A program made the translations under genes and the position numbers. 64,000 bases of DNA from Podarcis vaucheri (Eukaryota). The stretch's first letter is position 1; each line of letters opens with the position of its first letter. Below the pieces are notes generated by a model. The model worked only from the letters and a program-made list of their open reading frames with translations. It made no database searches and had not been told where the DNA came from. The stretch is from NCBI GenBank assembly GCA_965113315.1, contig OZ220372.1. The stretch is one strand, 5' to 3'. Shown here piece after piece: positions 23,529-48,459 of the stretch.

Positions 23529-23609
23529 GTTTGAGGCTGTGATGGGTCGTCCCCCAAAGAAACGCTCTCTCCTTGGATTTCATTGAAGCACTTCTCACAG
23601 AAATGATAC
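23529..23609 (-). CDS. EP300: EP300 exon 20 (81 nt, short form; RING)
   Basis: cgacag|GTATCAT...CAAAC|gtgagt; YHFCEKCFNEIQGESVSLGDDPSQPQT. Confidence 0.95.
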
Positions 23610-23641: not shown

Positions 23642-23988
23642 GTTCCGTCCACACAACACAGCCCAAGCCAAGCAACGGAGCCACCAATCACAGCAGGCCA
23701 AGGAGGGGGGCGGGAGCAGAGAGCAGGTCATCAACGGCGACAGGGACATTCAATGATGAAGATTTATGGGACCCAGAGTTTGTGTTTGGTTTTGTTTTTT
23801 TGTTTGGGTTGGTTTTTTTGCAATCAAAGCCAAGTGCAGACAACGACAAGCATGAAGGAGAAATAAAAAAACAACACACACACACGAACAAAGAAATAGG
23901 GATTTGCAGGACGAAAAACAAAAACACAGAAGCAAGACAGGACAACACAAAGCAGAAAGCCAAGGCAAAGCACAGATTAGCATTAAAT
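23642..23988 (-). promoter_or_regulatory. AG-exclusion zone with putative distant branch point (TGCTAAT, A at 23977) and long U/UG-rich tract
   Basis: No CT dinucleotide on the plus strand between 23642 and 23988. Confidence 0.65.
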
Positions 23989-24509
23989 CTCTCAAATGGG
24001 ATCACAAGCAGCAAATTATAGCAAATAAAAAGAGTATTCCATTTTAGTATGCCCATGCCCTCCTCATTTCAATAATCAATGCTACAATAAAGCAGAGAAT
24101 CAAAATGAAGAAAGGGTAAGAGCAATTGCTGCTCTGACATCTGCATCAGGGTAGCAACTCTTTTCACAAGAACATCTGCCAGGAGAGGGCTGGAAAGGGG
24201 TGAAAACAATCCATCTTGAGAATGCTCAAATGTTGACAGGCCAGTCCTTCCCCTCAAAGCATTTTTTGTTTGCAACATCTGTTTAAAGCAGCAGTAACCA
24301 TCCCCAAAACAATTTCTATGCAATTGTTCATGATCTGCCAAAATGACAGGTGCTTTAAGGCATCTGACAATCAGCCATGCATATGTATGTTCTTAATATG
24401 TGACGTACTGATGTTCCATGCCTCCAAATTGATGTATAATTGACATATTAAAAGGATTCCATCTTCATCTAAATTAATGTTGAATGCTTTACTCAAGATG
24501 TTTTTTTAC

Positions 24510-24545
24510 CCGCAAGAGTGCACAGAAACTGCAGCCTTTCCATTG
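24510..24545 (-). CDS. EP300: Candidate 36-nt in-frame microexon in intron 19 (S-NGKAAVSVHSC-G)
   Basis: U/UG-rich tract, then ttgcttag|CAATGG...TGCGG|gtaaaa; phase 2-2; stop-free. Confidence 0.45.
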
Positions 24546-25226
24546 CTAAGCAAGTTAATTTGAGTGCAAACATACAACAAAAAGAAACAAAAACAAAAAA
24601 CAAAACTGTGACAGTATTATAAAGCAAAGCAAAACCAACACTAGAGGAAATGTAATTGCTAAGGAAAGGATCACTTCTTCACCACCTATGTTTCCTATCT
24701 GTAACAGGTTAGTTTATTTATTACACTGATACAATGACAAACATTGATTTGGACATTCAAAAGACCAGTGTCCAAAGAACCACTTAGTGTTATCTGCTTG
24801 GGGGGAAGGCTTTGCCTTGCATGTTTTGGACAGCAACCTTCCATTCCACATTGTTTTTGAAACTCCTCTTAATTTCAAAAGCTGTGATATGGCATGACAG
24901 TCTGCTGATTAAAGGTAAAAAAATCCAGTAGCAATGCCCTAGCCCATGTACACACCTACAGCAGTTCTTTGGATCCCAGCTCATATGTATACATATGAAG
25001 ATTTCTTTACTCAAGTTGGCATTTGTGATAAAAATGACTTATGGCATGAAGCTGTAAAGTTATAGAAATAAATGAAAGCTTAGCTTTAGATTTGTTAAAG
25101 AACTAGTTGTCTACTTCAGCAACCCCCCCAAAGCATGATTTGCAGCAATACTCCTGACAAAAATCGTGAAAAAGTTGTGTTCTCAGTTTTCCTTCCTCCC
25201 TTAGAAGAGCTCCAAACACAGTTTTT

Positions 25227-25317
25227 CCTATCAGATGTTTTCCGACCCCAAAGCAGAACATGGAACCGTGCTATCACAGAAAGCAAGTCTTCAGAAAGAC
25301 TGCCATCATCATGCAGG
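25227..25317 (-). ncRNA. Candidate orphan box C/D snoRNA-like element
   Basis: C box ATGATGA (25306-25312), D box CTGA (25231-25234), terminal stem CCTG/TAGG in k-turn register; same strand as the host gene. Confidence 0.3.
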
Positions 25318-26106
25318 TGCAGGTGGTAAAATTAAGATGCACGGTGATGCTTATTTAATCAAACAACTCCAGAGTTCACTCCTCAGTTAATTTCCACTTC
25401 AGAAAAGGGCTATCGAGAACAAACTGAAGGCTGCAGGTCCAGTGGAGTACAGAGAAGTTGCTGGTTTACTGAAATTCCCATAAAAGATGCCAGACCAGGT
25501 AAATCTTGGTCTGATGCAGTGCAAGATTTACCTTCTTAAACAAAAGTACATACTCAGGAACACTTGACAGTTATGCCTCAATAGTTAAGAGATCCCAAGC
25601 ACACACACAGGAGTGCTACTAGCATAGAAATTCTAGCTGAGAGTGAGAGACTGTAAGAGGCCATGGCAGAGTCAAGTCAGCCCCTCTCTGACCTTGCAGG
25701 CATCCTGCTTTTCACGCAGCTCAAACAAAACACAGCTTTACAACTACAGCTTTAGTTGAAATAACTGTGATCTAAAACAGGAAATATGTCTCCCTTAGGA
25801 CAAAACTGAATGTTAAATGCAGTGAACTCAAGATGCAAACATGCATGCTTTTCTGTGCACTGTTTCATACAGAGGAAAAAATAATGGCTTTACTGCAAAA
25901 GCTTTGAACTTATCTAAAGCATATGGAGAGTTTATATTAACATCCTAATTTCTGAAACAGGAAGAAAAAGTCAATTGATGCAACAAGGCACTTGGCTTGC
26001 ATGGGAAGTAATCTGCTGAGTATGCTATAAATATAAGTGCATGCCTGCCTATATCTAATATAATTTTTCACAGCAGGTGCAATGTTGTACCCAAGCATTT
26101 TCTTAC

Positions 26107-26195
26107 CTGTTTTGGTAACTGTAATATGTAGCATCTCGTGGGATTGTGCATAACTGTTTGCCATAGCAACATAAAGTCTGTGGTGAAAACTCCAA
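26107..26195 (-). CDS. EP300: EP300 exon 19 (89 nt; RING N-half)
   Basis: ttcag|TTGGAG...AAACAG|gtaaga; LEFSPQTLCCYGKQLCTIPRDATYYSYQN. Confidence 0.95.
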
Positions 26196-26935
26196 CTGAA
26201 AAGAGAGGGGAACGCAGGTTGCTTACAGGTATCCAAGAAATAAGACACTTTAAAGCAAAGTTTCAAAAGCTGCTACAAAAGCAGCAGAAGCACAGATCCC
26301 ACCCAATGAGGGCATGCACACTATCTCCAGAGGGCAGGCTGGGCACCAAATTTTCCTAATGGATAAGCTCTAGAAGGTTCCAGACACTGTCCTGAAGAGG
26401 CAGAAAGCCCATACTTGGGATTGCACAGAAACCTCAGGTTTTTGTTTATAAGTATTCATGAAGTATCAGTGGTGGTAGTTCAGTATCAACACTGTCCGCC
26501 CCTCCCCAAGCTCCTAGAATCAGAGCACAACCTACAAATGTTGTGGTGCTAATGATGATTCCTGTACAACATAACATTTATTAGGCAGTAGTTTTATCCA
26601 TTTGGAATGCTGTTTACCCCAAAGAAAACCTTGCCATCAAAATGTTTTATACACAACTACATGTAGGGGTAGACCAGGGACAATAAACTTCTTAGCCTTG
26701 GAGGACCATCTGCTTTATTGCTTACATGCAGTAGGAAAACAACTGAATGTTGTATTTAATGATGAACATTAAGACTCTGGAGTAAGTACTGAACACAATT
26801 TAAGACAATCCTAAAATAGTTCACCATACTTGATTTCTATATTAGCATTCAAAACAGACTTAAAGGATCCTTAAAATTAGACATTGAAGTGTTTGGGTAA
26901 TTTCCTGAAATTCAGCTTAAGATGACTCTCCTTAC

Positions 26936-46749: not shown

Positions 46750-48459
46750 CTAGAAATTAAAGAATGACAATGAAGGAATATTTTCATTTTCTTCTGTTCA
46801 TTTCATGGTATACACTATGGTTAACTACTGTTTGGTTCAAGGAATGGAATATCAACAAACTGTAAAGTAACAAATTCTGATCTACATATACTCTCTTAAT
46901 ACTATCCATCTCTTTCCAAACCCCAATTCAATATTGATTGTACTGACAATTAATAAAATTTTGCTATCATTCAATACTTTCCATTTTCCCTTCATTTTAA
47001 ATCAAGTATTTCATATATATATTCCTCCAGATATTGAATTATATTGACTGAGCACCTCAAAAGTTAATTTATCCTTGAATGCTTATGATCCAAAGGCACA
47101 CCTTCAATTTTACAATCTGAATATTGAGCCTGATTCTGATCATAGGTCATGAAGAAATTGAAGATTTGAAAGAATGTCTCAATGGTTTGGCAGATTAAAG
47201 ATTTTATATCAAAGCAACACCCAAGCCATTAATTGTTTAACAAAGAATTATATATCACTTGATCTAAGAAAACCTCTAAGCAAATTACAAAAATGTAAAA
47301 TACAATTATTGATAGTTCCTAAATGTCAAATTTTTACAAGTGCAGAATGAGTATTATGAATCACCTTTAACAGTGTCAGTGCTCCAGACTGAAGCTGTCA
47401 AATGGGCGCATATATATATACACACACACAGAGACACACACAAAAAATAATAATAAGCAGAACACGTGAGTATATATGGAAAACACAGCTGAATCTGGCA
47501 GCTGCCTAAACTGATGTTTTCTACATTTATTGACTTTTTCACTATTAGCGGTTGAATAGTAATCCAACAGTTCTCCTGACATGTGTGGATACTACACCCT
47601 AGAATCACCTAACCTAACATGCTAGTGGAAGCCAGCAAATTGTCTCCCACTAGCACAATGGGGCTTCTCCTGCTCCACCAAATCTACTCTGGCGAGTCAA
47701 GAGAATCCCTAGAACATTGCAGGAGAAGGGACAGTTCAACCTGACAAGCAGAAATGCATGCACTGACAGAACAATCATTACATCATGAAGCTGAATTCCT
47801 CCATATGGTGGTGATGGTATTATTATTATTATTTACAATGTTGGACTGGTCTAAATCATGACAATCTTTAAACAGTTATCAAAAAAATGCATGAGTTTTC
47901 AGTTGAAATTGAAGCAACAAGGATCTGCCCTTCTCCCCGGCTCCAAGCTGGTGGACCCCTGCCCATTATAAATAAAATACACAATCTCTGTGCCTCTTTC
48001 AGAAGTGTGGTCTACCAGAGCAGGTAATTTTCAATGATTGGTTCTTTATACAGGAAGATTTTCTATGTCTCAGATCTTATCTACTTGTCCAAGTAAGTTC
48101 ATTTAATACTATTTTGCTAGTAAAGTTCCTAGATAGCAGGAAATCTCTACTGGAAATTATAAGAAAGCTCTGCTGGCCACAGTCCATTTTACACAGAGAT
48201 TTTAGTTGCAGAGAAAACAAGCACATTGTTTTTAAAAGAGGAAATCTGTGGTTTAGACAAAGTAGCAGGTACGAACATAATTAAGAAACCAGCAGTTAAA
48301 TAAACCTAGATGGCTACAGTGGAAGAGTCCATTCTATGCACTACTGTAACATACTGGAAATTCCCTTCCAAAACTTTCTGATATCATTATCTTTTACATT
48401 ATCTAATACTCATCAACACAGACAACTCAGTGCCCTGTTCTCCAGTAGAGACAGCTGAT

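Follow-up and report, generated by a model that had tools for sequence, protein, structure and literature searches.

Does EP300 of a lizard hide a neural microexon in its RING domain? The question is raised by a 36-nt stretch in intron 19 of the gene, which a first-pass annotation of 64,000 nucleotides of Podarcis vaucheri DNA (contig OZ220372.1; this whole stretch is called the window below) had read as a candidate unannotated neural-type exon adding 12 residues. As a pseudo-exon the stretch has little significance. As a functional exon it would offer a means of switching, by splicing, the domain that controls the p300 acetyltransferase, and it would be a recent microexon within a gene that itself regulates the microexon programme. 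We favor the pseudo-exon reading: with a probability of about 0.6, set by judgement, the candidate is a skipped pseudo-exon in intron 19 of lizard EP300, a look-alike that arose by chance. This verdict takes into account that an unannotated exon restricted to one lineage has a low prior in this gene, that the signature is rare, that the sign of constraint is weak and that the protein and RNA searches were empty.

Host gene and sequence signals

The window carries EP300 on the minus strand. A protein search with the last exon returned p300 proteins as top matches, and p300 of Podarcis raffonei maps onto exons 2-31 with 90-100% identity per matched exon, which identifies the gene as the ortholog of p300 and not of CBP. 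CREBBP is a separate locus on another contig. EP300 has a 31-exon layout of which exons 2-31 lie inside the window, and splice sites were assigned for 29 introns. Intron 19 extends from the donor at 26107 to the main acceptor at 23609 (2,497 nt, phase 2). The exon 19-20 junction falls just before R1197 (primate numbering), 4 residues ahead of the CxxC of exon 20, and in the PDB match the RING sits between bromodomain and HAT. Gene, intron, phase and RING location are thus as first annotated, judged by exon mapping, junction position and the PDB match. Table 1 lists the features of the intron and its neighbors.

Table 1 Features around intron 19 of EP300 in the window.
Feature	Position	Strand	Evidence
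Exon 19, first half of RING, phase-2 donor at 26107	26107..26195	-	Protein mapping, splice-site placement; 3 raw RNA reads in run X23
U-rich tract upstream of candidate, degenerate (GTTTTT)n simple repeat	24568..24605	-	Sequence
TGC at -23, end of U tract	24566..24568	-	Sequence
TGC at -7	24550..24552	-	Sequence
Candidate acceptor AG, first AG behind 58-nt AG-free zone, weak by matrix	24546..24547	-	Sequence, matrix
Candidate 36-nt cassette, would add 12 aa	24510..24545	-	Sequence signals; no joint in RNA, 0/297 proteins
Candidate donor gtaaaa	24504..24509	-	Matrix 4.65, 7/11 U1 matches
GCATG, 89 nt downstream of candidate	24417..24421	-	Sequence
TGCATG, RBFOX-type motif, 129 nt downstream of candidate	24376..24381	-	Sequence
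30-nt exon 20 extension via upstream alternative acceptor, +10 aa	23610..23639	-	Annotated in relatives; CREBBP of this genome has it too
Exon 20, main form, second half of RING, CxxC	23529..23609	-	Protein mapping, splice-site placement

Reading the sequence of intron 19 confirmed every signal that the first-pass annotation had listed. The candidate (24545-24510, minus strand) is preceded by ttgcttag, has CGG as its last three bases and is followed by gtaaaa; in phase 2 it reads S-NGKAAVSVHSC-G without a stop. Direct reading also found it stop-free in all three frames, so the open frame is uninformative and the frame is preserved through length only. T accounts for 62% of positions -75 to -21 from the candidate exon, and possible branch adenosines lie at -64, -16 or -10. 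The acceptor scored -1.4 by matrix, compared with 1.6-12.9 for real EP300 acceptors. On a matrix built from only the 29 real EP300 donors, which themselves range from 2.5 to 10.5, the candidate donor scored 4.65 and falls under 28 of the 29, while its 7/11 matches to U1 are the mode of real EP300 donors.

The candidate is single copy in the genome (1 match), which rules out a transposon origin; the one other match of the wider region is the T tract. Folding revealed no RNA structure at the candidate beyond that of shuffles (z = -0.03), and the exact 23-nt pattern had no match in metagenome contigs, a sample uninformative for lizard sequence. A second T-rich simple repeat in intron 19 (23779-23820) lies on the opposite strand, so that the transcript is rich in A there; it precedes the alternative acceptor of exon 20 by about 140-180 nt.

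Proteins and transcripts at the exon 19-20 junction

Junctions were sampled via a protein search with the CREBBP exon-19 frame. We assembled 403 proteins from two homology searches (120 of 638 and 120 of 144 matches listed) and two cluster look-ups. The main squamate cluster, which has 48 members, is represented by 15 of them, and the set also includes 4 lacertid sequences from 2 species. An exon 19 anchor was missing from 58 proteins, and in 48 others the anchor was not followed by an exon 20 motif, which left 297 readable p300/CBP junctions. These comprise 263 without insert, 30 with an insert of the +10 type (one of 9 aa) and 4 of other kinds. A 12-aa insert occurs in 0 of the 297, and none of the candidate's 5-residue words is present in any of the 403 proteins. 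The four lacertid sequences (0/4) lack it as well, and isoform X1 of Podarcis raffonei contains only the +10 segment. As far as tested, then, the stretch is indeed unannotated. Should RefSeq isoform numbering follow length, no RING form longer than that of X1 is annotated in P. raffonei.

At the same RING junction, an ab initio model from an icefish (P0314) has a 17-aa insert, which could reflect a faulty prediction or a cassette of independent origin. Its sequence is unlike the candidate, and it was dropped as support for it.

Intron 19 of CREBBP in this genome contains no counterpart among its 10 candidate AG-GT pairs, while the +10 acceptor is present. Zebrafish neural-exon tables list no ep300 or crebbp event, and control genes are present there by name. 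Ep300/Crebbp had no match in 5 supplement files of PMC4317164, a set that does not include the list of novel micro-exons (file 1), nor in PMC12868881 (1 file) or PMC12626420 (file 13 excluded), both searched without a control. The supplement of PMC7821500 also gave no match and is uninformative, as control genes were found only in code. In the limited collection of literature searched, we found no paper on an EP300 microexon and none on the alternative acceptor of exon 20.

That acceptor is well documented in sequence databases. The 10-aa extension, also named in the first-pass annotation, is seen in 30 of the 297 readable junctions and is annotated in RefSeq/Ensembl isoforms such as XP_053262689.1. 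It occurs in fish, frogs, snakes, lizards, a bird and mammals, and also in orangutan CREBBP; the human p300 construct in the PDB alignment is without it. In this genome both paralogs have the acceptor, and about 60 intron bases ahead of it are alike in EP300 and CREBBP. Two further sequences (P0285 and P0301) look similar: a leafhopper model has a shorter segment of this kind, and an arthropod-like intron read-through closes with 10 residues that share the YG core; other arthropod proteins are without a +10-like insert. The two sequences suggest an alternative acceptor common to insects and vertebrates, which may predate their split.

For RNA, 4 of 24 listed runs were placed on 24050-26350, a span that leaves out exon 20; among the runs set aside are the two single-cell ones, one bulk run and the six DNA-like ones. 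No splice joint at the candidate was found in these 4 runs of unknown tissue on this span, outside which any joint from the candidate to exon 20 would fall. A raw-read run (X23) contributed 3 reads. Exon 19 takes all of them, their loose ends pointing toward exon 18, and the candidate has 0; run X11 had 0 records on 24050-26350. Runs X1 and X9, taken as RNA by guess, come from a relative whose DNA shares 77% of words with the window. In either run a single unspliced contig, with a depth of 3-4, extends unbroken across both candidate splice sites. Their spliced mRNA contigs are absent, so records are evidently missing from the comparison. De Bruijn assemblies break at branches. An unbroken low-depth contig through both sites thus suggests that inclusion is not strong in these two samples, though contigs cannot prove absence. 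That the sole X9 contig happens to lie on the candidate was not counted as evidence, since its depth is about 3 and an A-rich tract belonging to the other strand lies next to it.

At 24407-24413 lie the ends of two unspliced contigs that stem from separate studies; no more than 6 bases separate them. No AATAAA was seen just upstream of this shared end, and at a depth of about 3 the ends likely coincide by chance.

The first-pass claim that the 36 nt are spliced in thus found no protein (0/297) and no read or contig joint behind it, so that the +12 and +22 variants remain hypothetical. Of the four RING variants it had allowed (0, +10, +12, +22), only two are annotated forms (0 and +10).

Chance, constraint and competing readings

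How often does such a pattern arise in this genome? We scanned 100 loci on both strands (1,916,000 bases) with thresholds chosen after the candidate was seen. The strict signature (T of at least 0.5, AG-free zone of at least 40, UGC, donor score of at least 4.5 and TGCATG within 250 nt) occurred 0 times in 1,916,000 bases, and once without the TGCATG requirement. A loose pattern (AG-free zone of at least 30, at least 60% pyrimidines, UGC and a donor at least as good as the weakest real EP300 donor) occurred 89 times, 8 of them with a downstream TGCATG. Scaled to the 38 kb of EP300 introns scanned, this gives 1.8 expected loose matches, or 0.16 with TGCATG; across filters the expectation ranges from 1.8 to below 0.02. 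The probability that 250 nt hold one TGCATG by chance is 0.10-0.17 here. EP300 sense introns hold two T+UGC matches, the candidate and a 30-nt stretch in intron 2, hence the local rate may exceed the background. T-rich tracts in EP300 introns number 5 sense and 3 antisense. Given the post hoc thresholds and the second match in intron 2, the pattern is not beyond chance: it is uncommon, yet within what a genome-wide scan over very many windows is expected to yield.

The intron 2 stretch (47365-47394, minus strand) is open in the phase of that intron and stands behind a 92-nt AG-free zone with TG/TA repeats. It has TGC before the AG and a donor score of 4.9 and is without a downstream TGCATG. 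We consider it probably due to chance. TGCATG itself is more frequent on the sense strand of EP300 introns 2-30 (50 kb), with 37 sense and 19 antisense copies (0.74 vs 0.38 per kb; flanks 0.43).

Sequence constraint was assessed against one close relative, with 38 repeat letters skipped. The X9 contig shows 0 differences from the window over 24407-24663 (257 nt), and all 10 differences listed for run X1 fall at 24667 or beyond, outside the exon and its flanks. Under an even spread this lack of differences has P = 0.03-0.07, rising to 0.36 if two unlisted differences lie inside; by word-share divergence P = 0.16. The comparison may offer a hint of local constraint around the candidate, and no more than that.

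Pseudo-exons and cryptic exons behind simple-repeat pyrimidine tracts are a general class, and we propose that the candidate arose in this way. The (GTTTTT)n simple repeat, from which the tract probably derives, would supply a strong pyrimidine tract; the AG that comes first after this tract would then look like an acceptor, and a middling GT 36 nt further on would complete the look. The spliceosome likely skips the candidate, presumably in all tissues, or uses it as low-level noise, and exon 19 would be joined to exon 20 at one or the other of two real acceptors, so that the RING would have two forms (0 and +10 aa) instead of four. In favor of this reading are the 0/297 proteins, the lack of a cassette in CREBBP, of an event in zebrafish and of a joint in RNA in the material searched, the tandem-repeat nature of the tract with a similar one on the opposite strand, the second match in intron 2 and a donor that falls under 28 of the 29 real ones where SRRM3/4 microexons have strong ones. 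Against it stand the strict signature found 0 times in 1.9 Mb, an acceptor layout that matches published neural microexons, the lack of differences around the exon in the close relative and a junction that already tolerates a 10-aa insert. The RNA comparison is also weak (3 raw reads, exon 20 outside the span), and 15 of 48 squamate cluster members were seen.

The foremost alternative, a real, lineage-restricted neural cassette exon, we consider unlikely. In such an exon U2AF2 would bind the distant U tract, SRRM3/4 would act on UGC before a weak AG and RBFOX would bind downstream; neurons would then include 12 aa in the turn of the RING hairpin, either alone (+12) or with the upstream acceptor (+22). 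The acceptor architecture is as in SRRM3/4 targets, UGC being found in 74-79% of them, and alternative micro-exons no longer than 51 nt have TGCATG as the enriched motif in their downstream flank (PMC4317164). The 0 occurrences of the strict signature in 1.9 Mb, the 0 differences over 257 nt and a single-copy stretch with no transposon sign also speak for it. Opposed to these are the lack of a junction in the RNA runs and of any case among 297 proteins, a length of 36 nt that exceeds the 3-27 nt of the class, a donor that is not strong and the lack of a counterpart in CREBBP or the zebrafish tables, though such exons are usually conserved in vertebrates.

Structural considerations are compatible with a neural exon. 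The p300 RING binds one zinc and blocks the HAT cleft, and its disturbance raises activity, as described in PMC12547938. With a longer loop, the position of the RING on the HAT active site, and with it autoinhibition, would likely be altered. For the 4BHW construct, AlphaFold places the junction with low confidence in the turn that joins the short strands 159-162 and 166-169, a placement that agrees with the solved structure. The two AlphaFold models are poor (mean pLDDT 43 and 39), the second being uninformative on the +10 loop, and a fold search returned p300/CBP only. A 12-aa loop in the RING would likely be tolerated, because a 10-aa loop at the same junction is; any role for the additional His and Cys pointed out in the first-pass annotation is conjecture. 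The boldest form of this reading appears somewhat more doubtful. In it, the autoinhibitory RING hairpin acquired, in lacertids, a 12-aa exon that only neurons include, and with it four lengths (0, +10, +12, +22), at a junction whose 10-aa alternative acceptor seems to date back to the split of insects and vertebrates. Since p300/CBP promote SRRM4 expression as upstream regulators (PMC8451555), an SRRM4-driven exon in the brake of p300 would, if true, tie chromatin acetylation and the neural microexon programme into a feedback loop.

A real non-neural alternative exon, included in muscle, heart or testis through the downstream RBFOX sites and release from a U-tract repressor with the UGCs incidental, is improbable: two (T)GCATG motifs downstream, a length and donor that suit an ordinary short cassette better than the SRRM3/4 class and the local absence of differences in the close relative would fit it, but it is absent from proteins and RNA alike and one TGCATG within 250 nt occurs by chance 10-17% of the time here.

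Relation to known exon classes

SRRM3/4 microexons, as characterized in 10.1101/2024.09.17.613571 and PMC12871342, are 3-27 nt long and have a strong 5' site, with the tract and the branch point at some distance from the AG; UGC is present in 74-79% of targets and is thus frequent, not universal. According to PMC12871342 and PMC4317164, neural microexons are usually conserved across vertebrates. The candidate shares with the SRRM3/4-dependent class a tract set back from the AG with UGC between them, a weak AG context and a 3n length. It differs in its 36 nt, in a donor that is middling where theirs is strong, and in conservation, as none was found among the 297 junctions, in CREBBP intron 19 or in the zebrafish tables. 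Of the first-pass label "neural-type", the acceptor side (tract, UGC and weak AG) held up; length and donor strength did not. The candidate resembles a neural microexon on its acceptor side and cannot be filed as one.

RBFOX/PTBP1-regulated micro-exons of 51 nt or less provide a second comparison. In PMC4317164, such exons are defined by junction reads, their flanks are mostly conserved across vertebrates, and TGCATG is enriched downstream of the alternative ones. The candidate agrees with them in size, AG/GT borders, symmetric phase, pyrimidine-rich upstream flank and downstream TGCATG. They rest on junction reads and conserved flanks, whereas the candidate is known from sequence signals.

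Repeat-tract pseudo-exons are the class of our preferred reading. Like them, the candidate has a good-looking acceptor behind a U-rich repeat, a middling donor and no annotation, and its chance rate can be measured in the same genome. Unlike them, it is an extreme case against the background, whose 1.9 Mb hold the strict signature 0 times, and its surroundings are unchanged in a close relative.

Finally, the +10 acceptor inserts, as the candidate would, at the exon 19-20 junction in the RING. It is annotated widely, is present in both paralogs and has insect look-alikes, whereas the candidate has none of that support. The +10 acceptor is the firmer lead: both paralogs and, by resemblance, insects can lengthen the RING loop.
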